NCBI RefSeq assembly: GCF_037042905.1
Contig: NC_087251.1
Coordinates: 29,328,001-29,392,000, forward strand
Reading direction: 5' to 3'
Length of the DNA stretch: 64,000 nt
Source: Lytechinus pictus
Taxonomy: Eukaryota
In this document: in pieces, positions 2,459 to 50,686 of the stretch
Numbering within the stretch: position 1 is the stretch's first letter
Layout of the letters: each line of letters begins with the position of its first letter
Translations under genes and position numbers: made by a program
Notes under the pieces: generated by a model
Databases searched by the model: none
What the model saw: only the letters and a program-made list of their open reading frames with translations
Told to the model about the DNA's origin: nothing

Positions 2459-2539
2459 CATACCCTCGCCCATGATCTTACGCATGGCACCGCGGAACTC
2501 ATCAATATCTAAACCACCACCTCCATCTTCATCCGCTTC
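2459..2539 (-). CDS. EF-hand exon (EADEDGGGGLDIDEFRGAMRKIMGEGM) of an EF-hand gene resembling the WDY/EFCAB8/WDR49 EF-hand+WD40 family
   Basis: Acceptor ttttcgtag|GAA and donor ATG|gtaagt, 81 nt. Canonical EF loop D-x-D-x-x-G-x-L-x-x-x-E. Phase 0 with the 4309 exon. An alternative donor a few nt earlier cannot be excluded. Confidence 0.8.
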
Positions 2540-4308
2540 CTACGAAAATAAAATGTTGAGGAAAAATATAAAAATCACAAATTTATAGTGAAAATTCAGA
2601 GGCCCATATTTTTAAGACTGGTTTACTTCACCCATTGTCAAAGTCGCGGTTAAAATTATGGGAGGCTGAAAATGTAAACAAAGTATGAAATTGTGCTCCA
2701 TGTGTTTACTCGGCTGTTTTCCTATGCTTAAACCGTGAAGAACTTGAAAAATTACATTATGTCCCCCTTTCCAAAATATTACGAAATAAAAATATGTTAA
2801 AATGATTACACTCTTTCTGCAAATTATATGACAATAACATTCTTTCCATTCGCTTGCTAAATGTGTAGAGTATAGAAAGGAAGTACTTGTACCTCTCACA
2901 AAGATTATATTGTTTTTTATGTTTGATGTTTTGCGATCTGCATGAGATTGTTTATAACTCGATAATTATCCCCCGTGTTTTACACGCCATGATGCATCCA
3001 AACAATAACAACAGAACAATTTGTGACCTCATTATTGGGTGAAGTTCATACTTAAGCTTTAAATTTGCTTGGCATACTGTATTTTTTTCTGTTATGTGTT
3101 AAAAAAATAATTTTCCAACTTCCACCCCCCCCCCCTCCGAAAGAGTGGGATAATATCTCAGTTGATATTAACCATTATCAAATGTAGTGAGATTCCTGTC
3201 ATTATGTTCAGGCATTTTTTTCAGAACCTTTTGTGAATGTGTGAAATAATTAAGTCATCATAGAGAGATAATGATACATACAAAATATACATATTTCTAT
3301 CGGATCGTTCACTCTCCGTGCTTTGCTACATTTTTTGTGCCAACGTTTTACAAAGTGAGAGTATCTATTGATCCATAGAAGAAGTATGTTTACTATTTGT
3401 CAAAGGAATTAGACGAATTATCTCAATGGTTCGCAAAAACGCGAAAGCTGCTTAAAGGATTTAAAATGGGAATTTATTGAAAGTACGTCATCCTGCAGGG
3501 TCATTTCTCTTCTAATCTTCTCAATGTTACAATACATCGGTATCAATTCAATGATTTTGGTTCACAATGAAAACTAGTAACCGCTATATTCGGAAAGGAC
3601 TACTGTGCAACCATTACTGAGTAACACCCCCTTCAAAAAGACATGCATTTACATTTCATAAATTCAAGAATGATTCCAATTCATAAGATTTAATATTCAT
3701 TAATCATGTTAATCGATTCATGCATGGGGCTGCTTTAAATTACGATTTGTGTAATCCTGTATTATGCCTATTTGATATTGATACTCGGTGTTGAATTGAA
3801 CAGAGAAAACAGTGCGCTTAGAAAAGCCCAAAAATTAAACCAACGCCTGACAATATTAACGCACATTTCAAGATTTTTGTTGTAATCATATATTTACGAT
3901 ATTTTTTTCTATCCTATACCTGCTCTTATTATTTTCTGTATAAAGTCAAAGTTTCGCAAATTTCAGTTGGGGTGTATTACTGGTATAGAAGTAATTGTAA
4001 GGGGTGATAATTTTATTCAATTTTATTTTGTTTTCGTTTGGGTCGATTGAATTTCAATTCAGACAGATAATACCCAAAAAAAAGAGAAAAAATGGTTGAA
4101 TTCACATAATGGAGGAAAAAATATATATTTCTGGGAGTAAACGAGGTTTGGATTGGAGTCGAGCGGGGTGAGACCACAAAGATTGGGGGGGGGGGTGGAT
4201 ATATATAAGAAAAGTAAAAGGGGAGGAAGGAAAAATACATATAAAAAAAAGTTAAGTGGTGACGATAAGGAGGATATGAGAAAGAGGAGAAAGTGAATGT
4301 TAGCTCAC

Positions 4309-4554
4309 CTCGAATATTTCTTGTAGCTTCTGCAAATGATCGTTGTTCATCTCATCTTCCAGGCGTGCCCCCATCTCCTGCTTGCCCGACATGGAAGTCT
4401 TGGAACCCTGTGAATCAGAGTCGGAATCATTACTATCATCATCGGATACATAACTGGATCTGGCAGTCATTCTGCTTGATCGCCCTCGCCATCCAGCCCC
4501 ACCACCACCACCACCTCGTGGGTCAGGGGTGTGGGAGTTCGAACCCAGGTACAT
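4309..4554 (-). CDS. N-terminal coding exon of the same EF-hand gene (MYLGSNSH...RLEDEMNNDHLQKLQEIFE)
   Basis: GC-richer ORF, 82 codons from ATG 4554 to donor GAG|gtgagc. Joins in frame to give LQEIFE-EADEDGGGGLD, the entering helix plus loop of an EF-hand. Confidence 0.75.
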
Positions 4555-5542
4555 CCTTGAAGCTGGATCTACTATAGTGTCTATTTGATTACACAACGCC
4601 AATGATATCCGCAAGACGAATACTGTTCTTTGGGCTGATATTCATTCCAAATTAAGTCCAAAAACAGGTATGCATATCAATTACACATAAATGATAGCGT
4701 TTCACAAAGTTTAGATATATAAGAATCTTGCAGCTGTCCGATTGGTGTGATTGGTCTAAATCCTTCCCATGGTGCATCCTGTTTTATTTACAGTGGTAAC
4801 GGGGGAGTACATTGCTTGCCCACTTCTTGCTACCTTCCTTTATCTTCTTTCACAGGTGAGCCCGTCCGCTCAATGGAAGACTATAACCCCCTCATTTGCA
4901 TGAATCCATAATATTGATCAATCCAATATAAGTTGATAATAACGTTACAAGAAGAAGCATTGCCCTCCGTTCTTTGTCCATTGCTGGCAGACAGTGTGTA
5001 TTGGATGGTCACAAAATGTTTTGCGGTAGACCATCTTCCAAAGTTGGATGAGCAATCTTTGAAGGGTTGTCTTTTGTTGTCGAACAGAATATAGGTTCTG
5101 TTACAATACGCCATGAGTGTCATTACTGAAAATTGGGTAGAGTTCTACTAGGGAAATGGGCCTTTGTAGCTGTCTGTCTAATTAAATCTGTTAATTTTCA
5201 AGGATTTTTTTAAAGGGTGAATCGGTGAAAATTTTACTAAAATGTGATCTTAATCATTAAGGGTAGACTATAGGAGTAAATACATAAGGTATTGCAAACC
5301 ATGTTGTGTTTACCCAACTGAAGTTACATTTTCTGTCATAACCTAATTGCCACACTTACTGAGTGTGCCAAACTACATGTATATGGCAAGGAGATAGAAA
5401 TGTTGCAAAATCTCATTAGATTGTTCCTAAACTCATTTTATTAGAATATCTCATGAAATATATTTTGGTCAGGTTGCAGGATTTAATTTTCAAGTCCGTA
5501 TATAAAGATTCTTTTTAAAAGAGTAGGCCATACTACACACTG

Positions 5543-5789
5543 ATCATCATCATCAACATCATCATCTCTAGCATCATCATCATTATCATCATCATCATCA
5601 TCACCACCACCATCATAATCAGCATCATCATCACTAATATCATTTTATCATTACCACCACCGTCATCACCATCATCATCATTAATATCATCGTCACCACC
5701 ACCACCACCATTATCATCATCATCATTACCACTACCAGCACCATCATCATCATCATCATTACCACCACCAGCACCATCATCACCATCAC

Positions 5790-5861
<72 letters not shown>

Positions 5862-6075
5862 TACTTATATCATTTTATCATTACCACCACCATCATCACA
5901 ATCATCATTGCCATCATCGTCATCATCATCATCATCATTACCACCACCAGCACCATCATCACCATCATCATTACCACCACCAGCACCATCATCACCATCA
6001 TCATCATCATCATCATCATAATTACCACCACCATCATCATCATCATCATCGTCATGATCACCATCATAATTATCA
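5543..6075. repeat. (CAT)n/(CAC)n compound microsatellite
   Basis: Direct reading. Explains the poly-Met/poly-Asp ORFs in the track. Confidence 0.95.
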
Positions 6076-7117
6076 TTTCTGCTTGTCATTTTGGGGGGTG
6101 GACAAATTAGCACCCCGTAAACAAGTCCTACTCTGGATCCGCGCCTCCTACGATCACATTCATGATCATCTTTACGAGCAACATTCTAGAGGCAGAGCAA
6201 ATATCAAGGTTCGTGCGTAGGGAAATTAATATTAAACTTTATCATGTCAAAGACTGGCAAAAGTGTTGTAACGCCACCTACTTCACGATTTTCTGTCCTT
6301 TTAAAGAAAACGACAGGTGTTCCACTACAATCATCTCTTTTTTGTAATTTCATACAGAAATAATTTTCACATGCATGACTTGATTGATAAGCATTGAAGC
6401 AGACTCCCTTCGAGTTCGTCTTGTGTATGGTTAACTTCCTTGGTTACAATTATGCCAATTGCATGTTTTACAATAAGCTTTTTTTTTTCAAGGGTTTATT
6501 TTGTTATAATAAAATGCAATTTCACAACGCAGTCGTCAACTACATGAATGGGGACCTGTTCATATATGATATTTAAGAGAAAATACGGGAGAAGTAGATT
6601 GGGGCATTTCATGATTTACTGGCTAATTTGCTCTCAGACAAGGATTTTCAGTAGCTTACAACAGCTGCTGTCGATGAAAGTAACTGACAAAAATATTCAT
6701 GAAAGATCTAGGGCAGTATTTTGCGAAATAAATAATCATCGATTGATAATTTATTAATTAATCTGACTGTTATAAACTACCAAAATACTTGTATCTGATT
6801 GTCCAAGAACAAAATGAACAGGGAAAAATATTCAAAGATTTGTTTCGCAAAATGTTCTCCTGGAAGCTTTGGCTTTATTTCTACCAAATAATTCTTAAAA
6901 GTGGTGTAAATTAATTTACACCGGTAAAGCGTTTAAGATAGTGAGTACTCCTATAATCAGTTGCTCAAAAAAATATCCGAAACGAGCAAAAACACAAAGG
7001 CAAGCAAATAATAATATTGCACCCTTGATTTTTACGAGTAATTATGCATTGTCAGTGCAATCAATCATACAAAAAGATATATGTTGTACGATGATATTAA
7101 GGTTGGTGTTGCGGACC

Positions 7118-7380
7118 CGCATTCTGAAGTCGGGTTTAACTTCGACCACGGTCTAACTCTGTGCTAAAATTATGGGGAGCCAAAAATTCAAAAAAATTGT
7201 TTCTATTGTATTTAAAAATACTTCATTTATCATTGCCAGACAATTATGAACAATTTGGGTGTCATATGAGTCAATAAATTGGATGTGTACTGTTAGAGAC
7301 TTGTGCCCCAATTGGCTATCGATAGTTAAACCACAACTTTAAACCAGGGTTTGATTGAAATCCTAGTTCAGAATACGAGT
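7118..7380. mobile_element. Small degenerate MITE
   Basis: Imperfect inverted ends gacccgcattctgaa ... ttcagaatacgagtt. Confidence 0.45.
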
Positions 7381-7396
7381 TAGTGACGTCATTTAC

Positions 7397-7507
7397 CTTG
7401 GAACCCTTTCCATCTGCTTGCGTAGACCCTTCATCAGGACTGGTAACTGATGTTTGAGAATCGGAGATTGGGAAGAGGCTCTTTCTCCGATCCTTTGAAG
7501 ACTTCAT
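7397..7507 (-). CDS. Candidate alternative first coding exon of the EF-hand gene (MKSSKDRRKSLFPISDSQ...DGKGSK); exon 7397-7520
   Basis: Acceptor ttcttgatag at 7521-7522, aaagATG context, 37 open codons, donor CAAG|gtaaat. Confidence 0.45.
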
Positions 7508-9282
7508 CTTTTATGATGATCTATCAAGAAGGTAATATAATAGAGCGGATTAGCTCCAAAAATCACAACAATTGTGCAAATTTTGACTAAAGCATGAAAC
7601 TTTCACAAGTATAAGTATATGCCCTAAGATTTATTTTAAAGGTGGGAGGTAAATTTTAAAATGCCATTTTCGGCCGTTGCCATGGCAACAGATTAATTTC
7701 TCAAAAATGACATACATTCCCATGTAAATGGTAAATAAACATGACATAGATGACCAAAATGATAATTTTCAAGTTCCCAATTGAATATATATAAAATTTA
7801 GAAACATTCAAAATTAACAAGATAGTTCCAATTGGTCCGTTGCCATGGCAACGGCTTGTTTTTCCCCAGAAAAATAAAAAAACTGATTAAAAAAACGTTG
7901 TAGAATAGGATTTATTTTTAATTTCCCCTAATTTTACAGTGTTAAACAACGATATTTTGGTTGCTCAATGTATATACTACATCTCAAGCCATTGCCATGG
8001 CAACCAAATAACATCTAATTTACAAAAATAACATGGTAAACTAGACAATGGACAGGTGGAAAATACAACTGGAAATGACTTAATCTGTATGCTTAAGTTT
8101 TGGCCCCCTCATTTGAACAAAAAATACAGAATGTGTTCTGCAGGAGTTCTTTATAAAGATAAAACATTATGTTGCCTTGGTAATGCTTGAATTAAATAAA
8201 AAAAACGAATGTTGCAAAGATCCCGTTGCCATGGCAACAGTTTATTTCCCTCTAGAAAGGTAAAAATATTGATAAAAATATAGAATACATGTATGATCAT
8301 CATTCCATTTTCAATATTTTTAAGGAACTAATCAAAATATGATTGTGACTACATTTATAAATATAACATCTTAAGCCATTGCCATGGCAACCAGATAACA
8401 TCTAACTTAAAAAAACAACAGCAGGGATGACAAGGTTATGGATAGGTGAAAAGTACAATGAAAATTAACTTATGTAAATGCATAAGGTTTGACCTACTCA
8501 ATTAATTTAGGGGAAATAATACAGTGAGTGTTCTGCATGAACTAATTGGAATGATACAGATTGACGTTGCCTTGGTAATACTTGAATTCAACGATAAATA
8601 TCAATGTTGCAAATTGCCTGTTGCCATAGCAACGGATCATTTAGTACCAGTTTTTATTAAAAAAGGACTATAGAATCTGGTTTTTCTTGCATTTCCCCCA
8701 ATCTTAGTGTGTTAAACATAACTATATGTTTGATGCAAATTGTTTAAATAAAATCTAAAGCTATTGCCATGGCAACCAAATAATATCTAATTCACAAAAA
8801 AATAATAATTTGGATGACAAGATCATGGACAGGTGGAAAATACAAATATAACTCAATATGCGAAAGGTTTGGCTAGTCATTTAATTTTAAACAAAAAATT
8901 CACTAAGTATTCTGTATGAGTTCATTAGAATATTAAATTTTTTTTGCCTTGGTAATTCTTGAATTAAATGATAAATATTAATAATTTTAATGTTCTGTTG
9001 CCATGGCAACAGCTCATTTCCCCCAGAAAAGTATCAGCAGCTTTGATAAATAAAAACATGATAAAATCTGATTTTTCTTTCATTTCCCTTAAGTTAAGGG
9101 TGTTAGAAAATATACGTTTGCGGTTAATATGTAGATAACATCTTCAGCCATTGCCTTGGCAACCAATCAAGATGTAATTTATAAATACAAAAAAAAAATT
9201 ACTGTTGAAATGATAATGGTCAGGTGGGATGTAAAATAAAGGTTTACTTTTAAAAGCTACATAATGTTTGACCAGTCATTAA

Positions 9283-9857
9283 AGGGGAATGAAACCTTTG
9301 GAACAAGTAGGCTTGTGTCGAAACAGAAAAATCAAAGAATAAGAACAAAGAAAGTTTGAGAAAAATCAGACAAATAATAAGAAAGTTATGAGCATTTGAA
9401 TATTGCAATCTCTAATGCTTTGGAGATCCTCCCATTGGCAACGCTACAAGGATGTGTGATGTCACACATGAACAACTTTCCCTTTGATGGACCCTGAAAA
9501 TGTGTCTTTTTGCTTTTTCGTATGGTGATACAAACTCTTTATCCATGATGTATTCTATAAAAATCTGTATTACATGCCCTCCTATAGAAAGAATACATGT
9601 TCTACTGATAGATGTAATAAAAGAGGCAATTTAAGTGAAATATATACTAAAGTAATGGGGAGAGTTGTTCAAGAGTGACATCACACATCTTTGTCGCATT
9701 GCCAATGTGAGGATCTCCATAGCATTAGTGATTGCAATATTCAAAAGCTCATAACTTTCTCATTATTTGTCCGATTTTTCTCAAACTTTCATTGATCTGT
9801 TTCTTAGATTTTTCTGTTTTCACACAAGCTATCTTGTTCCAAAGGTTTCATTCTCCT
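9283..9857. mobile_element. Kolobok-like MITE nested in the left arm of the Academ-like element
   Basis: TTAA|AGGGGAATGAAACCTTTGGAACAAG ... CTTGTTCCAAAGGTTTCATTCTCCT|TTAA, long TIRs (~190 bp). The host unit resumes after removal. Confidence 0.85.
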
Positions 9858-11399
9858 TTAAGTTTTGAACAAAAATTACAGTAAGTGTTCTGCATGAGTA
9901 CAATAGCATGATAAAAACTGATGCTGCCTTGGTAATGGTTGAATTTAATATCATTTTTTTGCAAATGTGTAACGGATCGTTTTCCCCCAGAAAATACCAT
10001 CTTTGATAAAAAAAATACCTAGTAGAATCTTATTTTTCATTCATTTCCACTAAGGTTAGGGTGTCAAACATACACGTACATGTTTGTTGTTAAATGTATA
10101 AATAACATTTTAAGGCGTTGAAATGGCAATAACATAACATTTCATTTACAAAAAAACATAGCTGACAAGATAATGGACCGAAGGAAAATACAATAAAATT
10201 AACTGAATATGCGTAAGGTTTGACCTACTCTTTTAATTTTGAACAAAAGTTACATTAAGTGTTATGCATGATTTCATTAGGATGACAAAAATTACTTTTG
10301 TTTTGGTAATGCTTGAACATAATGATGAATATCAATGTTACAAATGGCTCCAGAAAAGTACAAATTTTGATAAAAATATGTTTATTTATTTCCTTTTCCC
10401 TTATAGGAGGTTGCTTAACATAAATATGCTACATGATAAGCACCATCTTATTTCATTAGACATGGCATCGAAATAAGACCTACAAAAATCACATCAGACT
10501 TTTTTGGGCTCAAATAAATTCCCGAAACTCTAATTTTGATGCTGGACAATTACGTTCAAAGTATTCGCAGGCGGCCATTTTGAAGAAAGCGTTTTGGGGT
10601 GATTTGTGTTTTAAAGCTGTTCATCATATCAATAACTAAGGGGATTATAGGGGTTGATGAATCAAAATCTTAACTCTATTTGAGGAGTAGACATGGTCTT
10701 GATATCCTAATCAAGGTAAATACAGTAAATCAACTTTTACATGGAGATCATGAAATCATGAAATCCTTCCTTGTTCGACTGTTTTAGCATACTTGGCTTG
10801 AAATATGATAGCAAAGCACTATTAGGCATCATCTGCCAGGATACACCTTTTAATTCCTGCATACAAATGTCAGAAAATCGTTACTTTGTGAAAATTCCCA
10901 TAATTTCTTTAAAAATTCATGAAAATTGCCGAAAATTAAAAAAAAATTCCCACAAAAGTCACGTTTATTCCCATGGAAAGTTTCCATCAAGAAAATTCCC
11001 GGGAATTTGCAACCCGTCTCCCCTCCCCCCCCCCCTCCCAAAAAAGAAAAAAAAAATCATTATCAAGAAATAATACAGAGAAAGTGAAAGAGAGATGGAT
11101 AAAATATGATTATTTTACGAATAATATACCAAAAAGGAAAAATTTGGAAATTTTTGCTCTGTCGCTGGCTCGGTGAGAACATTTTAAAGTAAATTTTGCT
11201 TGATATGTCATATCTGGCCCCCTCAAAATTGCACTGCTGATTTTGAAGAAGAAAATTTTGTAATACTGTGATAATTTTTAAAGTAACATATGAATCTATT
11301 CAACGCCAAGTGTAATCTATTCACTGGTTATTTTACATGAAAAGTAGACTCGTCAAATAAAATAAAAAATACCTTTACTGGTTGAAAGGTTAAAAATAA

Positions 11400-13396
11400 T
11401 TTAAGCAAGGGTATTCCAAGATGGTGCCCTCAGTGGGTGCCATAGGCTAAAAATCCACAATTCATCCATTACTTGATAAAATGGCTTTAATTTGGTTTCT
11501 ATTCATTGGTTTTAAGGATCAAGTAGTACATTGGACCAAGTTACAGGGAAAGCCAGTGGTCTGGAATGTCCAAAAATCCAAGATGGCTTCAAAAAATTGA
11601 ATCTAAAATGGTTGCTTATACCTAAAGCGGACATAGCTCATTTCATATTGGCCTGGAGGATAATATTTTGGTGTCTAAATCATTGGTTTCAAGAGTAAAT
11701 CATTGGTTTCAAGAGTCTAACAATATTAGTACAAGTTACAATGACAGTCAGGTGTATTCGAAAATCCAATATGGCTTCCAAAAACTATTCTAAAATGGCT
11801 GCTGATACTTAAAAGTGGAATAACTCCTTTTATATTCACCTGTGAGATATGATTTTGGTGTCTAAACCATAGTTTCAAAAGTGAAATAATAAATTAGGAC
11901 ATAGTTTGTTCAATATCTGTCTGGGAAATATGATTTTGATGTCTAAACCATCATCATAAAACCATGGTTTAATGCATTAGAACAAGTTACAAGGACAACC
12001 AATGGACTGGTATGTTAAAAAATCCAAGATGGCCTCCAAAATGGGGTCTAAATTGACTGTTGTTACTTCGAAATGGACATATAATTCATTAATAATGCAC
12101 ATTGGGGGTATGTTTTTGGTGTCTACACTAGTGTTTCAGGGGTCAACTAATACTGTACATTGTGTCAAGTTGAATGGACAGTCGGGTGTTAATATTGTGT
12201 CCAAAAATTCAAAGATTGTTTGAAAAATGGGGGTTTTAATGTTACTTAAAAGTGGACATAGTACATTAAAAAATACTCCTGGGGATGTTATTTTGGTGTC
12301 TACATTAGAATTTCAAGGATCAAATGATACGTTGGGACTGGTTACAATGATGTATAGATGTCCATTTTGCCTGAAAATCCAAGATGGCATCAATGAATGG
12401 GTTAAAAAATGACGACTGTTACGTTGAAGTGGATATGATATCCACTTGTGAGAATCTACCTTGGATTTTGGACAAAATTGAAAACTAACCATCCTTGTTA
12501 CTTGTCCTAATGTAATAGTGGACCCTTCATACCACAGTGTAGACACCAAAGATGTTTCTCACAGGTTGTATGAACTCTGATAATTTTTGAGTGATAGAAG
12601 TCATTTTAGATTCCATTTTGGTCACCCTCTTGGATTTTTAGGCAATTTGGACAACTGGATATCATTGTAACAAGTCTAAACGTATTTTTCGAAACTTTAA
12701 ACCAAAGTTTGAACACCAAAATCATTTTTCCTTGGTTGACTTTCAATGAACTATGTCAATTTTTAAGCAACAGACTCCAATTAAACCCCGATTGTTTGAA
12801 GCCATCTTAGATGTTTAGACATATTGGATTACTCACTGTCCTTGTAACTTGTTCCATGTCATGATGTATTTACTGACTTTTAAAACCATGGTTTAGATAT
12901 CAAAATAATATGCCCTTGGCAGATATTACACGAAATATGTCAATTCTTTAGTAACAGGGCTATTCTATGATCCATTTTTTTTAAGCCACCTTGGATTTTT
13001 GACATACTTGACCACTGAGTGTTCTTGTAACTTGTCCTAATGTATAGTTTGACACATTTCACCATGGCATAAACTTATTCCAGGCTAAACAACAATTTTA
13101 GACTCTATTTTCAAAGCCATCTTGGATTTTTTAAATATACTGGACAACTGACTGTCCGTGTAACTTGTCATAGTGTATTACTTGACCATTGAAACCATGG
13201 TCTAGACACCAAATCATATATCCCAGACGGATATGAAATAAGCTATGTCCATTTATATATCAACAGCCATTTCAAACTCCATTTTTGGAAGCTGTCTCAG
13301 GGTCTTGGACACATCAGACCACTGGCTGTCCTTGTAACTAGTCACAATATACTACTTCACCCTTAAAACCATTGCATAGAAACCACATTAAGCCAC
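11400..13396. repeat. Second foldback array: ~190-bp units with AAAATCCAAGATGGC, forward to ~12420 then inverted from ~12455
   Basis: 11485-11565 is an approximate reverse complement of 13315-13396. Repeated ttggtgtctaaacc/ggtttagacaccaa motifs switch orientation at about 12440. Confidence 0.75.
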
Positions 13397-14893
13397 TGGA
13401 ATTAGATGTAATTTGGTTGTCATGGCAATGGCATAAGTTATTTGTATATCAACAGCAAACATAATGCTTTGCACTCTAAAATTAGGGGAAATTTATGACA
13501 AAATGCAGATTCTAAACTGTTTTTCGATCAAATTTGGTACTTTATTCGGGAAAAAAGGAGTCATTGCCATGGCAACGGGCTATATGTAACAGTGATATTT
13601 ATCATTAAATTCAAGCATTACCAAGGCAACCTCAAATTTTATCATTCTAATGAACTAATGCGAACCACTGTAATCTTTGTTCAAAATTAATTGACTGGGT
13701 CAAACCTTGAGTTAATGGATTGCATTTTCCACCTGTCCATTATCATGTCAACCATGTTATTTTTTTCAAATTAGATGTTATTTGGTTGCCATGACAATGG
13801 CTTAAGCTATAATTTGAATGTTAACAGGAAACATATCCATTCTTACCCTAAAATTAGGGGAAATGAAAGGAAAAAATCAGATTCTACAGATTTTCTGATC
13901 AAAACTGGTACTTTTCTTGGGGAAATGAGTAGTTGCTATGGCAACAGGTCATTTGCAACGTTGATGTTTATCGAATTCAATTATTACCAAGGCAACTTCA
14001 ATGTTTATCATTCTTATGGGGTGTTGCAAGAAACTTGCGATTGAACGCAAATCGAACGCAACTCCCAAAATTGAGCGTAAGTCCTCCGATTAAACGCAAA
14101 TCTGCAATTGAACGCAAGTTACGTTCAATCCTGTTGCAAGAAGAAGTTGCGTTTGATCAATTGAACGTAGATCAAGCGCAAGCTTTGCAATTGATTGCAA
14201 ATCGAACGTAACTTATGTGAGATTTTGGAGGATGCGCAAAATTTGCGTTCGATTTACGTTCAATTGATTGTCCATAGGCTTGTGTACTAAAAATTCTGCA
14301 AAATTTTTTTTTGGTATTTTGTTTTGAAAACTTGTGTAAATTATGCCATTTTCAATTTTCCATGGGTTTTTTTCAAGAAAAACTTGAAATAATGTTATTT
14401 TCAATCTTTATAGGCCTCTTCAGCAATTATGCCATTATTTTCACACAATTTCACTACATTCTCTCCTAATATCATTTTAAAGTGTGTCAATCACCGAAAA
14501 TATTCTGCTCTTGTTATCAGAGGTCATGGAATATTCAAATTGTGATTTCTGAAATAATTTGTATGAAAAAATATTGAAGAAATATCAATTCTCCATAGGC
14601 ACAAAAAAGCCACTCTTCATTAAAACACTTCATGCACTGGCAAATGTTTATCAATATTTCTGAGGGTTTGCAGTAAATACAACTCAGAATTTGTTTTGCA
14701 AGAGCACCAAATTGCTTCAATGCTTTCATTCATAAATATCATAATGAATAACATGCCCAATTAAGTTATTTTAGTTTGATTTTCAAATAAAACATACATT
14801 TCAGGAGATTGCTACACTTCAAAATCTGAAGCTCTCTTGTTTCTCTCTCTTTAATCATGAGATTGCATGGTAGATATATATCACACTTGCATA

Positions 14894-15024
14894 CAGGGAT
14901 GAGGTCGAGGCTGATTCTTCCGAGTCATGAGGCAGCTTGAGAGAACTTCCCATAGATTCTGTACAGTGACTCGGACCAAGGCCAGCAAAATGTTGTCTCG
15001 AGGTCAGCATTGACTACATCCCTG
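14894..15024. mobile_element. Tiny hAT-like MITE
   Basis: CAGGGATG...CATCCCTG ends, degenerate 8-bp TSD cttgcata/cttggaaa. Confidence 0.55.
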
Positions 15025-17017
15025 CTTGGAAATGAAAAGATCCATTGATCTATGCACAAAAAGAACACTGCTCAAGACATTCATTATTGATGGACCTTTT
15101 ATTTTTAATTTTCATTGTTTCTTACTCCTGAGGAATTACTTCTGAGATTCATTTATATCAAATAAAAATTCATATCATCTTCATCAAGTGTTTTACCACT
15201 GAATGTCAGCCCACAGTCCTTAATGTTGGCAAGAAGAATCCATAGAAGTCCAGTCAGGAAAGCCACAAGCTTCTCTGCTTGAAGGAACAAATTTGGTTTC
15301 CAGAAGCAGTCTAATTTGAGATGACTTTGGAGAGCTCCATGGAGTGAAGTTTTTAAACCAGCAACACCCTCATTCTGAAGTCCACTCTAATAAGATGTTA
15401 CTACAGACAGGAGCAGCTCTGAATTCAGTTCTGATAATCAACCTGTTCATAAAAAAATAATAATATAGGAAATAATGCAAGCCCATAACCATACATAGCT
15501 TGGGTTAGTTCAAATTTTGTCCTTTCAGTGCAAGAATGCCCTTAGCAAAACATTTTTGTGCACCCCATCAGTGCAGAAATGCCCCTATGCCTGCTGGTAA
15601 GGGCGTTGTTTGCAACGACAAGATGATATGATAGAGGGATAGTGGCTTACTCCTGAGACCATAATAATTGGCAATTTGCCATGATGTAATCTAAAAGTGT
15701 GAAAACTGATTGTTTTTCCCAAAATAAATGAATCATGGAAATTAAAATATGCAATAAATTAAATCAATGAAAGCAAAATTCACAATTTAATACAGTACAC
15801 ATTGGATGAGCACAACAACCACCCCTCCCCCCCCCCCCCCCCATCAATGGGGGTGTCTTCATTGCTGAGAAGTCCAAGTCAAGATAGAGATTTGTATTTG
15901 CCTTTTTCATTTTGCATTATCCTTGGGTTAATGTGTTCAGATTTCACCCCCATCCGCATTACGATCATGGTGAATTATTAATAATACAGTTTACATGTAA
16001 CCTACCATTTGAGAGTTGATAAAATGAATCAATCAGCTGGTTGCAAGAACACACATTGTAGCAGACACAGTTATGGTGGTTCGGAGGTTTCTTGTTTATT
16101 CCAGACTTCTTTGTCATCATAACTGTAGTAAGCAATTAAAAGCAAAAAGCAAAGAGATAAAACATGTTCATGAAATTAATATACAAGTTAAGCTCAGTTG
16201 CCAGGGTGTTAATCATTATAGTAGTCCCAGGGTGTTTTGATTAAAGTCACTTCTGGCCTGGGAAGGGGCACTATGGTTCCTCATCCATGGGCGGTGCAAT
16301 TAAAAAAATTATGAAATCATACCTTTCGCTTTAATTTACTAAAAAAAGCTCGTAATAGAATGCTAAACTTTGGTGTAGATATTCCTCTCTAGAGCATTCC
16401 TAACAACTTTACTTTAAAAAATCTGGTATAAAAATAAATTCCTTTCATGTTTTTTTTTTAATATTTTTTCTTAACTTCTTAAATGTATTTCTTTTAATTG
16501 TTATTTTCAACACAAAGTTCATCAGTGACAATGAATTACTATTGTCAATAAAAAAATTACTCAATTATGAATATTGACTTTTTACATGTAATCATGTTTT
16601 TGTCTGACATGTACTTAAACAAACACAATGTTGCAAAATTTCCTGACCCTGTACCTGGGAATTGCAAATTTGGTCTCAAAAGTTGCGTGAGACTTGAAAG
16701 TAAAACATCAGTCAATGGTGCGGTAATACAATTTTGAGTGGCAGATTTATTCTGAAAAATGTCAAGGGGGACCATATGCCCCCCCCCCCCCCCCGAGTAT
16801 TGTACTTGATATAAAGGATGTAAAAAAAAATTATGATTATGCATTCAATATTAATAATGATGCACCAAATAAGACACCCTTTTACTGTAAGCACCTGGAA
16901 GAGCATTGTAATCATCCATTAAATAATTTAAAGTGAAAAAAAAAAATCTGTCATCTATATAGCACCTCATGTGCTTGCATAAAAATCAAGTTAAGACTAG
17001 AGTCAGTTACATAGTAG

Positions 17018-17464
17018 CCCGGGGGGGGGGGGGGGGGTTACTCACGAAATAATGCATATGGGGATGTGCCGCTGGAATGGGTCGCCTTTTTGGAAGAAAT
17101 CCCTAAACATGGGGTATGGATTTATGCTGGAAAATCCCTAAACATGGCCCAATTTTTAGATACTGGCCTTAAACATGGGTCCATATTCTACTCCAATGTC
17201 TTAGGTGCAAATACAAAATTATCTTACATTTTGGGCATTAACCTTTTTTTTTTTTTTTTTGCTTGTCAAGTTTTCCAGGCGAAAATGTGCCCCCCCCCCT
17301 TTTGGAAATCCTGGATCCGCCCCTGTAATGAATCCCCAATAATGGGCCCCTTTTTAGCCAAAATGACCTGTAAATATGGGTACAGGTTTCAAACCTTCAG
17401 CCGCACACCTTTGTCCAAACCAAATCTAAGTACCTCCCCCTCCTCCCCCCCCCCCCCCCCCAGG
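17018..17464. mobile_element. MITE with CCCGG-polyG / polyC ends (CMC/EnSpm-like), same family as 46143
   Basis: cccggggg...actcacgaaataatgcatatggggatgtgccg start resembles the 46143 copy. Ends in agtacc-polyC. Confidence 0.55.
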
Positions 17465-20400
17465 CATAGTAGACCTACATATTGAATCTAAAAAATAGAT
17501 GTATTATTTTAGGGGAAATTTAGGCTTACATGTATATCTTTTTATATTTATATATGATGGATATTAAAAATGTGACTCATACGGCACATCATTACATATC
17601 AACGACACAAATAGACTGCCCTTGCAAAGAACCTCTTGTGCAATCTACCCGTAAGAAATTTTAAAAAGAGCCCCGGGCGGGCAACTCCCTATTCAATGTT
17701 AAAACTTCCCCAAGCCAAGAATGAGGCAGATGTGGCCAATAGATTCTGAAAAGTAGCCCAATACATGTAGACCCCCTATACTTTTTTTTTTTTTTCTTGT
17801 CTGGCGAGATATGTGGAGTCTGGAGAACCCCCCCCCCCCAAAAAAAAAAAAAAAAAAAAAAAAAAAATTAAAAAAAAAAAATAAATAAAATGAAATAAAA
17901 TTAAAAGAATTAGAATAAATAAATAATAATTTTTGTTTTAATCCTCCAAAGACAAAAGTCGAAACAGCAAAAATTTTCACTTTATCCCAGGCCAGGCCAA
18001 GGAAATTCCTAAAAAGGGAGGTTAACGTTAGACAGACTCTTAAGAGACAAATGGAGAGGATTTTTTTTCTTGTGGAAAAAAAAATAGAAGGTAAACTAAT
18101 GGAATTTTTAAAGTCTTTAATTTCTATTTACTGGATGGCTATTCGCCGTTGAAACCGATATAACTTAAAAATCATTTCCAATAGGAACAAAAAATATCTT
18201 TAAAGGTCATTTTCGATGTTTCATACATAATTAGAGCCTACAGTACATTTACTTGCTTCAGGGTGATTTTTAACAGCACTGCACCGCCACCGGCAATGAC
18301 CTGCCGTGTTGTTGATACAACCGTGCATTACCGACACAAAAAGTTAAGTGTGGGACTGGGATTAAAAGTGTGCAGTAGAAAATTTGTTGAAGGTGAAATT
18401 TCGACCGGCGATAAAGAAACATTTTCACTCTTTTCAAAATAATTTTTTCCCTGGCATAGGTCTAAAATACATAAATTCTCTGAAAACATACATAATGGAG
18501 AAAGAATTGTCTGAAAAATGAATATTTTCTACTTACTCTCTTCCAGGTTCAAGATTATTGCAAGCCAATATTTTGCTTTTTCGGCTAGTCTTGTGCTGCA
18601 GACCCTGTTTACAGCTGCAAATCAGCTGCAACTTGCGTTCAATCGCAAGCCGTTTTCTTGCAACGCAAATTGGCGATTGATTGCTAGTTGCAGTCGATCG
18701 GAATCGGCTGCAAAGTTGCAGTCGATTTGCAATCAATCGCAACGTAACTTTCTTGCAACACCCCATTAGAATGATAAATAGTTCGTGTAGAACACTCATT
18801 GTATTGTTTCCCCTAGATTAATTGAGGTCAATCCCGATGCATACAGTGATGCACATCAGGTGAATTTTCATTGTATTTTTCACCTGTCCATATCCTTGTC
18901 ATCCATGTTGTTTTTTTAATTAGTTATCTGGTTGCCATGGCAATGGCTTAAGATGTTATATTTATAAATTTAGTCACATATATATCTCGATTAGTACCTT
19001 AAAATTATTGAAAATGGAAAGATGATCATACATGTCTAAATTCTAATTCAATATTTTTACCTTTCTAGAGGGAAATAAGCTGTTGCCATGGCAACGAGCC
19101 CTTTGTAACATTTTAAAAGAATTTAATCCAAGTGTTACCAAGGCAACATAAGTTCATATCTTTTTAAAGAACTCCTGCAGAACATTTTAACTACTTTTTG
19201 TTCAAATGAGGGGGTCAAAAGTTAAGCATACAGATTAAGTCAATTCTAATTGTATTTTCCACCTGTCCATTGTGTTGTCAACCATGTTATTTTTTTTCTT
19301 CAAATTAGATTAATTTGGTTGCCATGACAATGGCTTCAGATATTGTTTGTATGTTAACAGCAAACATATCAATTCTTACCATTAAATCAGGGGAAATGAA
19401 AGAAAAATCAGAGTCCAAAGTCCTTTTTCTAATCAAAACTAGAACTTTTTTGCGTAAATGAGCCGTTGCTATGGCAACAGGTCATTTGCAACATTGATAT
19501 TTATCGTTGAATTCAAGTGTTACTAAGGTAACATCAATGTTTATCATTCTAATTAGTTCATGAAGAACACTCACTGTATACTGTTTCCCCTAAATTAATT
19601 GAGTAGGTCAAAACTTATGCATAAAAGTTATTTTCATTGGATTTTTCACCTATCCATAACCCTGTCATCCATATCATTGATTTTTTTTAATTAGATGTTA
19701 TTTGGTTGCCATGGCAATGGCTTAAGATTTTATATTTATAAATGCAGTCACAAACATATATTTTTATTAGTTCCTTAAAAATATTGAAAATGGAATGATG
19801 ATCGTATTCTATATTTTTATCAATATTTTTACCTTTCTAGAGGGAAATAAACTGTTGCCATGGCAACGGGATCTTTGCAACATTCGTTTTTTTTATTTAA
19901 TTCAAGCATTACCAAGGCAACATAATGTTTTATCTTTATAAAGAACTCCTGCAGAACACTTTCTGTATTTTTTTGTTCAAATGAGGGGGTCAAAACTTAA
20001 GCATACAGATTAAGTCATTTCCAGTTGTATTTTCCACCTGTCCATTGTCTTGTTAACCATTTAATTTGTGTAAATTGATGTTATTTGGTTGCCATGGCAA
20101 CGGCTTGAGATGTAGTTTATACATTGAGCAACCAAAATATCATTGTTCAACACTGTAAAATTAGGGAAAATTAAAGATAAATCCTATTCTACAACGTTTT
20201 TTTAATCAGTTTTTTTATTTTTCTGGGGAAAAACAAGTCGTTGCCATGGCAACGGACCAATTGGAACTATCTTGTTAATTTTGAATGTTTCTAAATTTTA
20301 TATATATTCATTTGGGAGCTTAAAAATTATAATTTTGGTCATCTATATCATGTTTATTTACCATTTACATGGGAATGTATGTCATTTTTGAGAAATTAAT

Positions 20401-20694
20401 CCGTTGCCATGGCAACGGCCGAAAATGGCATTTTAAAATTTACCTCCCATCTTTAAAATAAATCTTAGGGCATATACTTATACTTGTGAAAGTTTCATGC
20501 TTTAGTCAAAATTTGCACAATTGTTCGGCTAATCCGCTCTACTAATAAGAAAAATGAATCTCAAGAATAATTTGTTTTCATGGAGTATATTATTCTCAAA
20601 CACAACTGGAACCAATAATCAAGGAAAAGTTCGATGCTTTCTATAATATTATAAATCACAATCTATACATGTACTATCTATCCGAAACTATCTA

Positions 20695-20908
20695 TTGCAA
20701 GAAACTTGCGCATCAATTGCAAGTCTACTTTAGGTCCCTAAATCAATCCTAACTTTTGAAAGTAATTGCAAATTTGCGATTGATTTCTTATCTGCTTCTT
20801 GAAACACGCAGTGTAATTTGATGTGCTATGGTTAAAATTGATATATCAATTGTAAAATGGCAACAGAATATTTGCAATTGATTGCAAATATTTTCTTGCA
20901 ACATCCCC
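20695..20908. mobile_element. Short MITE of the TTGCAAGAAA Harbinger-like family
   Basis: Homologous to 43359-43574, with ends related to the 14017 TIR. Confidence 0.6.
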
Positions 20909-21400
20909 TTAGTTGAAACTTTATTAAAATATATATAATATACACAGATAGTATTTTTGGTGTACAAGAAAGCAAATGATACCATTGGCAAATGGGACCA
21001 CAAAAAAAGTGTGGCATGATTCTCGAGGTTTTTTTTTTGGGGGGGGGCGCTGACAACTGCCCTTCTTGCTTTCAGTGGCTTTGCTTCGGACTTATTCACA
21101 AACAAATATATTTTTCATTTATAACTTTCGGATATCTGCAAACATTTATCCAAATAAATCGATATATTTTAATTCTCTAAAGATTACAGAGACTAAACAT
21201 TAAATATACCGACAAGTAATCAATTAGAATTGAGGTAAATAGGCAAACTGAAAGTAATAAAAATAATATTGCAACCTTCTGCTCAAAATTAAAACGATTT
21301 CTATTAAATGTATTAACTGTAAAATTCTTTACAGAGAGACTATATAGGCCAAATGCTTAAATAATAGATCTGTATAAATCTTTGAAGGTATTGTTAAAGA

Positions 21401-21711
21401 CAGTGGCGGATCCAGGAGGAGCACGTCCGGCCCGTGCCCACCCCCCCCCCTGAGAGTCATAGGGTTAGGGAACATACACAAGTGTGTCCCCCCCCCCTTT
21501 TGAAAGAAACAGGATATATTTTCAATGGGAATACGGTATTTCGTTCATACACAACCGAGGACCTTTTTTTTTTTTTTTTTTTGCTTGTCAAATTTGACGT
21601 GGACGAAATGAGCTTCAGTTTTTGGTGAAACCTTTTTTTTTCTTCTTTGCTTGTCAAATTTTGCTTCGGAAAATGTGCCCCCCTTTTTGAAAAATCCTAG
21701 ATCCGCACCTG
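21401..21711. mobile_element. hAT-like MITE (CAGTGGCGGATCCAGGA ... TCCTAGATCCGCACCTG)
   Basis: Inverted ends. A fragment of the same family occurs at 17260-17325. TSD not clear. Confidence 0.55.
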
Positions 21712-22266
21712 GTAGAAATCAATAAGAGCAACATTTCAGAGACGTAGGCCTATCTAGATGTAGGATGGGGGGTCGGGTGTCCGGACACTTTATATTTTTG
21801 AAGCCTTCTTTTTTGTATTTGGATTACACTAAAAATATAAATTTAATAGTTGTAATCATCTTATATTTTGTTCTCTATAATATTTCCTTACATTTTGTAC
21901 TAAAAATTGATGACACTTCGGTTGTAAATTTTTCCAAATGACTTCCTAAAATTGATCGTCCGGACACACAACCTGTCCGGACACACAACAACTGGGTATA
22001 CCAACGACATGAAAAGATGACTTTGACAAAAATAAGCTTCGATCGAGAATCTAATCACTGCAGTGAATGATAGCTTAATGCATATCACTGTCTGACCTCA
22101 TAATATTCCAAATAATAGCAATCATAAAGAATAAGCAGGAGGGAGACAAGAAGATGATCATGAACAAAATGAGAAGAGAAAGGAGGAGATGAGACAGGAG
22201 TAGAAGATGAGTGAGGAGAAGATGAATGAGAGGAAGAAGAAAGAGGAAGAGGAGACTTCAACTTAC

Positions 22267-22430
22267 CAATAATAATTTGGTCTATTAATCCATTTCTATG
22301 AATCCCGACCTCAAAATCCTTCCGAGGCAAGTTCCAGCGATTTCCTTTCCTTTAATAGTCAAAGATGTTTTTATACTCAGCAGATTAAGATTATAAATTT
22401 AAGGGAAAAAAACTCCCAGTCTTTCTGGTT
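22267..22430 (-). other. Candidate non-coding first exon of the EF-hand gene (5' boundary approximate)
   Basis: Strong donor ATTG|gtaagt at 22266, just downstream (minus strand) of a CpG-rich patch at 22440-22700. Confidence 0.4.
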
Positions 22431-22439
22431 AAGCTTGCT

Positions 22440-22700
22440 GGGTATAAACGCGAGCATGATAATGCGACATGCAAACAATTTTATCATTATTTTTTTTCTG
22501 CAAAATATGAGTCGCGCACCTTTTCATGATCCGCGCAGCGTAGTCGGGCGTGGCACGCATGCCTAAGTCCAAGTCCCAGGCACCCCTCCCCCGTGGTAAC
22601 GGTGGTTGGGGGGGGGGGGGGTGGTGAACAGGGTAAGGGATCGGAGGTGTAATGACTGTATAATTTCCTTCTTTCGCATCAACGTTCACGTGGACGTGAA
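22440..22700 (-). promoter_or_regulatory. CpG-rich putative promoter
   Basis: Local CpG/GC enrichment next to the candidate first exon. Confidence 0.35.
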
Positions 22701-23465
22701 CATTTAACTATTACGATCAGTTTGCATGCAACAATTTTAAAGTCGTTTGAGAGCACAGAACTAATTTAATCAAAGTTCAGTGCCATTTAATACAATATGC
22801 CAATAATATTAGTGAAATTTAAAAAAAAAGTAAAAGAGATTTTTTATCAGCCGACCCGACACCGCCACGTCATACTTTGGTAACCTATAGCTCACTTTCT
22901 GAATATGCAAACTAAATTTATATTTCCTTTACCATATCGTATCAAAATAAGCTTATTTATACATTTTCTGGTAGAAGTGTATATTACGTTCCAACACTAA
23001 AAGCTTTTCATTATTATATCTAGATGATATATGCCCATATTTACCAAATATTTAATCATTATTTTGGACAACTCTCCTGTCGTACACCCATCAGATTTTT
23101 TTCTGTTATCTCAGCAGATAGATGTATATCGTTTAAACTATATAACAGGGGCGGCGCGGCGCGGCGGAGCGAAGTCGAAAGTGGGGGGGGGGGACGCAGG
23201 AAAACAGGGCACCTTTTCTTTCGAAAAGGGCACTATCTTAAACATGGCCGTATGCAGAATTTTTTAGGATCATTGAGGCGCTTTTGCATTTTATTAAGTG
23301 AATTTGATGGATTTGTGCATACTTTTGGTGAAAATTTTGTGAAAATCTGCAGTGAAATAATGTGAGTTTTCAAAATTTCGGGGGGGGGGGGGCAACTGCC
23401 CCCCCCCCCGCTGCGTACAGCCATGATCTTAAAACAAAGAAAAATGACTTATCTACCCCACTCAC

Positions 23466-23623
23466 TGTAGTGTCGTAGCATGTACACACTTGGCGTTCCA
23501 TAGTTTGAACGGGATTAACTTACCGAACATGTCAGTTAATTATGTTATGATTAAAGTATTGCTGTGAACATTATGAATGATGCCTTAGGCCTATTAACTG
23601 TTTGTCCTGTTGACTACTTTACA
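23466..23623 (+). repeat. 5' LTR (158 bp)
   Basis: TGTAGTGTC...GACTACTTTACA, identical to the 3' LTR by eye. Confidence 0.95.
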
Positions 23624-23624
23624 T

Positions 23625-23634
23625 TGGCGACGAG
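23625..23634 (+). other. Primer binding site TGGCGACGAG, complementary to the 3' end of tRNA-Ser(GCU)
   Basis: Starts 1 nt after the LTR end. Eukaryotic tRNA-Ser(GCU) ends ...CCTCGTCG-CCA. Confidence 0.75.
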
Positions 23635-23639
23635 AGAAA

Positions 23640-26600
23640 ATGGCAACCTTCACCATTCCACCGCCAGTCCCTCTGGAGATAGACTCGACAAATCTGGCAA
23701 CGAGCTTCAAGAAGTTCAAACAGGCATTCGGCAATTTTGAGCTGGCGACGGGGATAGCGAGCCGCGACGACTCCCTGCGGGTAGCCACCCTACTGGCCGT
23801 AATCGGGCAGCCGGCGGTAGACCTCTATAACACCTTCACCTGGGACACGGCAGCTGACTCCAAAGTGTTCCAAAAGGTACTCGATAAATATGAGGAACAC
23901 TGCAAAGGGCATGCCAACACCACTTATGAACGCTATATTTTCAACACTAGAGTTCAGAGAGAGGGCGAATCGTTCGAAAGCTTTGTCACGTCCCTCAAAT
24001 CGTTAGCTGAAACATGTGAGTTTGAATTGCTGACAGAATCTCTCATTAGAGACAGAATAATCCTGGGAATGCGAAATTCCAACATTCGTCAGCGACTTCT
24101 TCGCGAAGCAAAATTGACATTGGAACAAACAGTTACAATCGTCAGGGCTGCTGAAGCAGCTACTGCACATGCCAGCGAAATCTCGAAGAGTGCGGCAACA
24201 ACCTCTGATGTGCACTACGTCAATAGACATCAACCAAATCGGAAACCTAAAGGTAAACTGCATCAACAATCGAAGTCTAAAGTCTGTCGCAACTGTGGTG
24301 ACAAGTATCCTCACAGTGATCAATGCCCGGCACAAGGAAAAACGTGTTCATTCTGCAAGAAACCAAATCACTTTGCCAAAATGTGCCGAAGTAAGCTCAA
24401 ACAAGCGGAAGTTAATGTCATGGATCAAATGTCCCAACAACCATCGTCACAACCACAATTAGCTCAAGATTCGACCTCTGAGGACTATCTGTTTGCTCTT
24501 GGCTCATCTGACGAGAGTAATCAATTGCTCAGAGTATCAGTGCTCATCAACAATGTTATGACATTTGTCGTCATCGACACCGGCGCTTCAGTGAATATTA
24601 TGAGCAAAGAAACATTCAACACTATCTCCCAACAGGAGCTACTACTTGAACCAACAGACAGACAAGTCTATGCATTTGGTGCTAACAGTCCCATTGATGT
24701 TCTGGGGAAAATCTCTCTTCCAGTACGCCACAAGACACAGACGCAAACGGCTGTATTCTTTGTCACTGAGCACAATGGTCCAACACTCCTACGCTTGAAC
24801 ACTGCGAAAAAGCTTCAAATGATCGCTGTAACGTACAATGTTCATGCTGCACCATCGATTATTGATGAATTCAGTGATCGATTCAGTGGACTTGGCAAGC
24901 TCACTGGAGTCACATGCAAGCTGCATGTAAATCCATCCGTCACTCCTGTAACTCAGCCACATCGCAGAATACCCTTTCACGTTAGGCGTAGTGTTGAAGC
25001 TGAACTGAAACATTTACAAGACTTGGACATTATTGAGCCCGTGCATCAAGAGCCTACGCCATGGGTTTCTCCAATTCGAGTTGTGCCTAAACCAAAGCAA
25101 CCAGGCAAAATCAGACTTTGTGTCGACATGAGAGCTGTCAACAAGGCTATTGAGAGGGAACGACATGTCACTCCAACTATCGACGACATATTAGCTCACC
25201 TCAATGGAGCGACAGTCTTCACGAAGCTTGATCTTAATGCAGGGTATCATCAGATTGAGCTAGATCAAGCATCACGCTATCTCACTGTTTTCTCGACCCA
25301 TGTTGGTTTGTATCAGTACAAGCGATTGAATTTTGGAGTGAACAGCGGAGCGGAGCAATTCCAGAATCTAATTCAATCTGCACTTGCAGGTCTTCAAGGC
25401 GTGATCAACATCAGTGATGACATCTTGGTGTATGCCAAAAATGAACAAGAACACAACGAACGACTGATGAGGTGCATGCAACGTCTACGAGAGAAGAACT
25501 TAACTCTGAATCGTGACAAGTGCGAATTCAACAAGTCTTCAGTTGAGTTTTTTGGGCATATCTTCAGTTCATCAGGCATATCTCCCAGCCCAACAAAAGT
25601 CAAGTCATTGATCGAAGCAGCACCGCCCAGCAATCGAGAGGAGGTCCGAAGTTTCCTGGGTTTAGCCAATTATTGCGCAAGGTTCATCCCAAATCTTGCT
25701 TCACTGTCGGAACCTCTTCGCGATCTGACAAGACAGAGCGTGCCATGGTCATGGGAAGAGCGTCACACAAACTCCTTCAACAACATCAAGCACGCGATCG
25801 CACAGCACTGCCACATGGCATATTTCGACTCGCGTCGTCAGTCAACTGTCATAGTAGATGCCAGCCCCGTTGGGCTCTGTGCAATGCTCGTCCAGGGAGA
25901 TGATCGATCCAACAGCATCGTAGCACTAGCAAGCCGTTCACTTACATCTGTTGAGAAGCGTTATTCACAGACTGAACGCGAAGCCCTAGCCGTCACTTGG
26001 GGCATTACACACTTCCATCTCTACCTATATGGCAGCAAGTTCAAGGTTATCACAGACCATAAGCCACTTGTGCCATTATTCAATAGATCTCATTCATCTC
26101 CACCAGCGAGAATAGAAAGATGGATGCTTCATCTTCAGCAGTATGAGTTTGTACTAGAATATCAACCAGGAGCAACCAACCCAGCCGACTACTTATCGCG
26201 ACATCCATCGTCTAGTACATTGACTGTTGAGCCAAACGCGGAAGAGCACATCAACTTCATCATCGAGAATGCAGTGCCAAAGTCGATCAGCATGGATGAG
26301 ATAGTGGAAGCGACCACATCTGATCCTGTCTTGCAAGCATGCATCAAAGCTATTGAAGAGAATAGTTGGCACTCAGTCGCACAAGAGTTGCAGTGTTTCA
26401 AAAATGTGAAGAATGAGCTCAGTGTCGCAAAAGACGGAAAAGTGTTACTCCGTGATCACAGAATTGTGATTCCGTCTATGCTTCGAGATCGCATCATCAC
26501 AATCGCACACCAAGGGCACCAAGGTGTAGTTCGCACAAAGCAGCTGATTCGCGAAAAAGTCTGGTTCCCCGGTATTGATAAGCGTGTGGAAGACAAGATC

Positions 26601-28898: not shown

Positions 28899-29056
28899 TG
28901 TAGTGTCGTAGCATGTACACACTTGGCGTTCCATAGTTTGAACGGGATTAACTTACCGAACATGTCAGTTAATTATGTTATGATTAAAGTATTGCTGTGA
29001 ACATTATGAATGATGCCTTAGGCCTATTAACTGTTTGTCCTGTTGACTACTTTACA
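28899..29056 (+). repeat. 3' LTR (158 bp), preceded by a purine-rich PPT (AAGATAGGAGGA)
   Basis: Direct repeat of 23466-23623. Confidence 0.95.

Positions 29057-50085: not shown

Positions 50086-50116
<31 letters not shown>

Positions 50117-50655: not shown

Positions 50656-50686
<31 letters not shown>

Follow-up and report, generated by a model that had tools for sequence, protein, structure and literature searches.

Arrays of X-box-type palindromes in the arms of a probable non-autonomous Academ transposon of the sea urchin Lytechinus pictus

Results

We analyzed a 64,000-nucleotide stretch of the Lytechinus pictus genome (contig NC_087251.1, positions 29,328,001 to 29,392,000, forward strand; hereafter the window), in which a mobile element with long inverted arms occupies positions 7538–20544. 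Judging from its ends, the element is very probably a non-autonomous cut-and-paste DNA transposon of the Academ type, and its arms are arrays of palindromes that match the X-box, the binding site of RFX transcription factors. We give about an even chance to the reading that these arrays are docking sites for host RFX that are intrinsic to the transposon family and serve the transposon, the location of this copy in a gene of a ciliary family being incidental.

X-box arrays in the inverted arms

A first-pass annotation of the window had reported more than 20 RFX X-box motifs in the element. We found 23 matches to GTTGCCATGGCAAC with at most two mismatches, nine of them perfect and all within 7538–20544, compared with a mean of 0.20 and a maximum of 2 in shuffled sequences. 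When three mismatches were allowed, the count in the element rose to 29, and the 51 kb outside it contained 2 sites. The motif coordinates given in the first pass were mostly right, though two were off by one and should read 18931 and 19705, and the ~390-bp arm unit described there was recovered as a period of ~385–389 bp. Each unit carries three classes of site (GTTGCCATGGCAAC, ATTGCCATGGCAAC and GTTGCCTTGGTAAT), and the first X-box stands at position 129 or 139 from the element end, after AAAATGCCATTTTC. The naming of the motif as an RFX X-box agrees with the RFX motif given in PMC4168999, where the GTTGCCATGGCAAC-type sequence is the exact optimum. Taking a match to RYYRYY-N(1-3)-RRNRAC or to GTTGCCATGGCAAC as the criterion, RYYRYY-N2-RRNRAC is satisfied by 29 of the 32 positional sites, and the GTTRCY half-site is kept in 28 of them.

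In comparisons of non-orthologous units, identity is 90% in the 42 motif columns and 68% in the other 344, and the excess is present in GC and AT columns alike (GC columns, 86% vs 62%). That the motif columns are better conserved than the remaining columns suggests that selection has acted on them in the course of the family's history. We also noted a second conserved block, ATGGACAGGTGGAAAA, in the arm units (for example, at 8043–8062; 86% identity between units), which contains the E-box-like sequence CAGGTG.

Ends of the element and classification

Under the Repbase rule, non-autonomous elements are classed by the length of the target-site duplication and by terminal positions 1–11 (PMC4455052); for the terminal part, we aligned positions 1–11 to a known member and allowed at most one mismatch. 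The reference was a curated consensus library of bivalve transposons (PMC10294476, supplementary file 31) with 100 Academ records, the first ~400 nt of each record being compared. The right end, TAGTAGAGCGG, agrees by eye at 10 of 11 positions with Academ kagoshimensis_4, kagoshimensis_5 and marissinica_21, and the left end has one additional change (G>A, at position 3 relative to the right end); bivalve Academ consensus starts include TAGTAGAGCAG and TAGTGGAGCGG. All 13 matches to the AAGCATGAAA box in the bivalve file are Academ records. This box lies at positions 43 and 53 in the two ends of the element, one of which is 10 bp longer than the other, and, counted by eye, at positions 42 and 53 in two of the bivalve records. 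ATA flanks the element on both sides, as a 3-bp duplication of the length reported for AcademX (3–4 bp; PMC10045372), and the boundaries 7538 and 20544 of the first-pass annotation are exact. An empty target site was not found among the joints listed. Terminal positions 1–11, duplication length and the shared AAGCATGAAA box, the last an empirical marker taken from the bivalve library, agree in placing the element in Academ.

The longest stop-to-stop frame inside the element is 155 aa, and a Pfam scan of 22 of its 92 frames (at least 40 aa) gave no significant match, which together argue that the copy is non-autonomous; the DDE transposase with a nuclease or helicase partner that defines an autonomous Academ was not found in these frames. 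Two other assignments were considered and dropped. A TA duplication or GAG (Sola-type) ends gave way to a boundary 3 bp farther out, which yields ATA/ATA and the Academ end alignment, and a Mutator/FB or sea-urchin TU foldback was rejected because the 3-bp duplication and the ~387-bp units do not fit. Mutator/FB duplications are 8–9 bp long and TU units 15 bp.

The element had been annotated as a 13-kb foldback transposon. The span is correct, but 5.3 kb of it consists of two later insertions, leaving a core of 7,676 bp; as a description of shape (long inverted arms, a tandem outer domain and an inner domain) foldback is apt, but as a class it is not, since the ends place the element in Academ. 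After removal of the nested inserts, each arm is ~2.35 kb long, with a left/right identity of 94–99% across the outer 0.8 kb and 63–73% further inside, and the arms are CpG-depleted (observed/expected 0.36–0.48). We had considered 11415–13395 a separate insertion and dropped this idea because two observations argue that the inner domain is integral: joints 8627–10351 and 13321–13884 in sequencing run X11 connect the spacer and the inner domain to X-box units in other copies, and the AAAATCCAAGATGGC-type motif of the inner domain is the one repeated near many bivalve Academ ends. Its CAAGATGGC form occurs 55 times in the bivalve file, and 23 of the 27 matches listed fall in records beginning with TAG. 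We take the CAAGATGGC(G/C)GCC motif to be a YY1 site.

Table 1. Features of the transposon and its host gene, in window coordinates
Feature	Position	Strand	Basis or remark
Host EF-hand exon (EADEDGGGGLDIDEFRGAMRKIMGEG)	2462..2539	-	
Host exon encoding an alternative N-terminus (98.8% identity to WDY-like isoform X2 of L. variegatus)	4309..4554	-	tblastn
Host exon, start codon at 7507 (MKSSKDRRKS...)	7397..7520	-	7397-7492 homologous to N-terminus of S. purpuratus WDY-like isoform X3
Left target-site duplication ATA	7535..7537	.	flank reading
Whole transposon copy, probably non-autonomous Academ type, 13,007 bp (core 7,676 bp minus two nested insertions)	7538..20544	.	
Left "long" end: TAATAGAGCGG, 13-nt spacer, AAGCATGAAA box at position 53	7538..7600	+	
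Left arm, outer part: one terminal X-box (7676) and ~387-bp units with three X-box-type sites each	7538..9278	+	
Nested 575-bp miniature inverted-repeat transposable element (MITE), Kolobok-type	9283..9857	.	TTAA duplication, AG..CT ends
Left arm, inner decayed units, X-boxes lost in part	9862..10460	+	
Unique non-coding spacer	10461..11414	.	multi-copy in run X11
Inner domain: inverted arrays of ~180-190-bp units with AAAATCCAAGATGGC-type motifs	11415..13395	.	
Right arm, inner part	13396..14013	-	
Nested 4.75-kb PIF/Harbinger-type element	14017..18765	.	TGGGGTGTTGCAAG ends, TTA duplication
Right arm, outer part, terminating in "short" end TAGTAGAGCGG, 3-nt spacer, AAGCATGAAA box at position 43	18769..20544	-	
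Right target-site duplication ATA	20545..20547	.	flank reading
Candidate upstream non-coding exon and promoter of host gene	22267..22720	-	GTAAGT donor, CpG observed/expected 1.02

X-box palindromes in other transposons and in microbial sequences

The X-box cores TTGCCATGG, CCATGGCAA and CCATAGCAA were absent from the compared ends of the 100 bivalve Academ records, the three core matches in the bivalve file being TcMar, MULE and Spy records; supplementary file 32, one of the 14 of 33 files searched, gave no X-box or Academ match. The AAAATGCCATTTTC sequence before the first X-box of the urchin element resembles the bivalve AAAATGGCGGCCATTTTC context, which suggests that one motif may have been swapped for another in place. 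By contrast with the bivalve Academ ends, the consensus file of KolobokP transposons (PMC9587614, supplementary file 3; 1.06 Mb, 0.001 perfect X-boxes expected by chance) contains the perfect palindrome twice, in an Owenia terminal repeat (~160 nt from the end) and in a Branchiostoma record. Three additional, neighboring Branchiostoma-type records and one other record have close variants; in the Branchiostoma internal records the perfect X-box lies ~125 nt from the end. A motif that is missing from ends within its own superfamily but turns up in another one is more readily explained by a host factor than by a transposase.

In a prokaryote scan, the same palindrome was found in tandem in seven bacterial contigs (~0.1 expected by a hand estimate), and none of them resembles the window. 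Four of these carry two or three GTTGCCATGGCAAC-type palindromes (L006 at 8001–8150; L004, L005 and L008 at 8001–8058), which probably are operator pairs; three share a 45-bp spacing. A metagenome scan with the end pattern gave one match, lacking both an X-box and similarity, and two viral scans gave none.

Copies in sequencing runs

In run X11 (organism C, contigs ~8–10% different from the window), summed depth over the outer arms was 1,358–18,230, compared with 5–11 in low-copy bins, and other arrangements of the arms were present. Although depth is not equivalent to copy number, at least one of the run organisms clearly has the transposon family in multiple copies. With many copies in the family, one selected copy in a ciliary gene says little about targeting. 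In run X9 (organism B), the interior of the element (10510–12480 and 19067–19483) was >99% identical and depth was zero in the flank bins 6300–6870, 21146–21716 and 22859–23400; this pattern could result from poor coverage of a closely related genome, from a young copy at another site or from horizontal transfer.

Nested insertions

The empty site of the nested 575-bp MITE is present in run X11 contigs (joint 9278–9858). Kolobok elements are defined by a TTAA duplication and RR..YY ends (PMC9587614), and a duplication of the length of TTA is typical of Harbinger (PMC12730594); for the 4.75-kb insert, an initial reading of an AT duplication (ISL2EU) was replaced by TTA. This insertion lies at the center of a short palindrome (14004–14016 and 18766–18778) that adds ~12 bp to the arm unit and possibly is a hairpin-type repair footprint. 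Inside the Harbinger-type element, we observed a spliced, apparently abundant transcript on the minus strand (14479–16130; run X4 contigs at a depth of ~340–550, CT..AC joint 15440–16004), which may stem from a captured fragment of a gene or be a non-coding RNA derived from the element. Its frames are interrupted, and the 66-aa frame at 15189–15386 had a single, repetitive match, no Atlas match and no credible homologue. Two short MITEs at 20695–20912 and 43358–43580 have GGGGTGTTGCAAG ends, as does the nested 4.75-kb element.

Host gene and insertion site

The element had been placed inside a gene of the WDY/EFCAB8/WDR49 type. Protein matches of the exon at 2462–2539 (23 matches, with all 19 named ones WDY-like or CFAP337-like and the best in echinoderms) and tblastn of three exons assign the gene to the CFAP337/WDR49/WDY EF-hand family, bearing out that suggestion; WDR49 and WDR64 are described as axonemal proteins (PMC11779644). 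Exons for the WD40 propellers further downstream would fall outside the window, past its position 1. The position within the gene needs qualification. Splice signals indicate that the element is probably intronic. It does not lie between coding exons; in one isoform, the first coding exon is downstream of it. Its end is 17 bp from the acceptor AG of the exon at 7397–7520 (7521–7522) and 30 bp from the start codon, amid an apparent polypyrimidine tract, and supplies the sequence GCTAAT ~30 nt from the AG, which possibly serves as a substitute branch point. Of the X-boxes, the one closest to the start codon is 169 bp upstream of it. An X-box half-site, GTGGTAAC, is present near 22590, and such a half-site is found at both candidate promoters of the host gene.

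In RNA run X24, no joint into the exon at 7397–7520 was found among the joints listed, no start sites were seen and the outer arms had ~0.1–2 reads per strand, so that this run carries no weight on expression or splicing; splicing across the element likewise was not seen among the joints listed. A search for RNA data over 2300–12000 listed no match.

Other features of the window

Tandem 155–193-bp units with AGGTCAAAGGTCA (nine sites with at most one mismatch) occur at 34215–34860 and 54547–55520. We take AGGTCAAAGGTCA to be a nuclear-receptor DR1-like motif and the repeat to be Helentron-like; the units possibly are another repeat built from a host-factor site. A Gypsy-type long terminal repeat (LTR) retrotransposon at 23466–29058 is probably young; its ~157-bp LTRs match, and its gag-pol frame of 1328 aa is intact. 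Exons of an equilibrative nucleoside transporter gene (Pfam PF01733) lie on the plus strand at 44116–59821.

Discussion

We propose a model in which the Academ transposase, supplied in trans, would read the conserved bipartite ends of ~55 bp, in their long and short versions, while the arms behind them would present repeated sites to a DNA-binding protein of the host. In the inner domain, the CAAGATGGC-type motif widespread among Academ elements would survive, and the RFX X-box would occupy the outer domain at a similar distance from the end. In RFX-rich cells, spermatogenic or ciliated, host RFX dimers would bind the arrays and could keep the ends open or bridged, leading to more mobilization in the germline, and this benefit to the element would explain why the motifs stayed conserved in units that diverged by 30%. 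A role of RFX2 in spermiogenesis is reported (PMC4498915, PMC4745085), and germline restriction is described as a transposon strategy (PMC6719617). The present copy would have landed by chance in the 5´ intron of the CFAP337/WDR49-like gene, splitting the polypyrimidine tract, and was perhaps tolerated because its end supplies the branch-point-like GCTAAT. For the claim that RFX is the selected binder of the arrays, we consider the chances about even.

Several observations weigh against this model. All 14 single transitions of the motif still satisfy the degenerate RFX consensus and the class-defining changes are inherited, so the fit of 29 of 32 sites is weaker than it appears. Inner arm units have lost X-box sites, and run X9 gave arm depths of 5–19 compared with ~5 for single contigs, leaving no high-copy signal for the window's own species. 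X-boxes are rare in both transposon libraries (a few of several hundred records), with the bivalve comparison confined to record ends and no echinoderm Academ library among those compared. Bacteria are not known to have RFX, and the tandem palindromes in seven bacterial contigs indicate that the palindrome can arise without it. The arm repeats of Galileo, finally, are reported to bind transposase (PMC3688188). The last two points favor a serious rival, raised in simpler form in the first-pass annotation, in which the palindromes are secondary sites for the family transposase or for an element-encoded accessory protein, as in Galileo, and the likeness to the X-box is convergent. Repeats of long arms are known as transposase sites from two sources (PMC3688188; PMC4079207), and such sites predict conservation within the units equally well. 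However, bivalve Academs with the same type of end have a different subterminal motif, the identical palindrome with GGCC flanks lies near the ends of Kolobok elements, whose transposase is unrelated, and the urchin motif matches the exact published RFX optimum (PMC4168999). We regard the transposase explanation as weakened by these comparisons and rather unlikely, though still to be taken seriously.

Neutral amplification, in which a single capture of the palindrome was followed by tandem duplication with no function involved, would fit the homogenized outer arms and the tandem amplification of arm units that is described as common in foldback elements (PMC4079207), but it does not account for the excess conservation of the motif columns, found in three separate site classes, and we consider it very improbable. 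Two further possibilities give the ciliary location a role. The host might have recruited the copy as an RFX enhancer, or the copy might act as a repressor or sink, in either case altering expression of the CFAP337/WDR49-like gene, as the axonemal nature of the host family (PMC11779644), the proximity of the nearest X-box to the start codon and the intact outer arms would allow. Against this, the arrays are a family feature found in other copies too, both candidate promoters of the host gene already contain half-sites, and the arms are CpG-depleted and have received two further insertions. Moreover, mouse ependymal RFX peaks are reported to center just upstream of start sites (PMC7498320), whereas the X-boxes here lie ~2–15 kb from the candidate promoters; co-option thus seems improbable. 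Alternatively, RFX might tether the transpososome to RFX-bound chromatin, giving preferential insertion into ciliary and sperm genes. The one copy considered does lie in a ciliary-family gene, but it was picked in the first pass for that reason, and a many-copy family would hit some ciliary genes by chance, making tethering the kind of explanation we would give little credence on a single selected case.

Docking sites for host RFX, if that is what the arrays are, touch on two open questions, the germline restriction of cut-and-paste transposons and the purpose of long foldback arms. Both could be put to the test in a tractable animal with a family whose arms repeat an exact host-factor motif and whose relatives have another motif at that place. 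Genome-wide X-box scans, and RFX motif enrichments computed from sea-urchin chromatin data, would also come out too high because of such families. Should RFX fail to bind, what is left is an ordinary non-autonomous Academ copy. More speculatively, and on balance doubtfully, Academ and some Kolobok elements may build their subterminal regions from optimal host-factor sites with the factor swappable, the urchin family having replaced a YY1-like motif with RFX arrays that time movement to the male germline; a side effect would be platforms of ~30 RFX sites that rewire or titrate the ciliary program.

Comparison with known systems

A literature search on the motif and transposons, with subscription papers and Repbase Reports outside its scope, turned up no account of transposon ends that carry X-box arrays. 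The use of RFX4 motifs in piRNA clusters (PMC4408798) concerns a different setting. The closest likeness in the ends is to bivalve Academ elements of the AcademX type (Academ_A.kagoshimensis_4 and _5, A.marissinica_21 and S.broughtoni_2; PMC10294476), which share the TAGT(A/G)GAGC start, the AAGCATGAAA box near position 42 or 53, the 3-bp duplication and a repeated CAAGATGGC-type motif. Unlike them, the urchin element lacks a transposase and has 2.35-kb modular arms, with X-boxes, absent from the first ~400 nt of the 100 bivalve Academ records, in the outer arrays and the CAAGATGGC motif displaced to the inner domain. KolobokP elements of Owenia and Branchiostoma have in common with it a perfect or near-perfect X-box palindrome ~125–160 nt from the end, in Branchiostoma with the same GGCC flank, but they carry a single site rather than an array, have a TTAA duplication and use an unrelated transposase.

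In shape, the element resembles foldback-type transposons such as Drosophila Galileo and Tetris and sea-urchin TU, which likewise have long inverted arms, tandem outer units and an inner domain, are non-autonomous and contain repeats with protein-binding sites (predicted in the present case). They differ in superfamily signature (Galileo belongs to P), and the repeated site of the urchin element is the optimum of a host transcription factor. Foldback is used as a term for shape, and most foldbacks are Mutator elements, according to PMC4079207. With the X-box promoters of ciliary genes such as HEATR2 and Dync2li1 (PMC4168999), the element shares the 14-bp motif and its relaxed variants. Whereas native promoters have one or two X-boxes near the start site, the urchin element carries ~30, which are mobile and lie kilobases from the candidate promoters.

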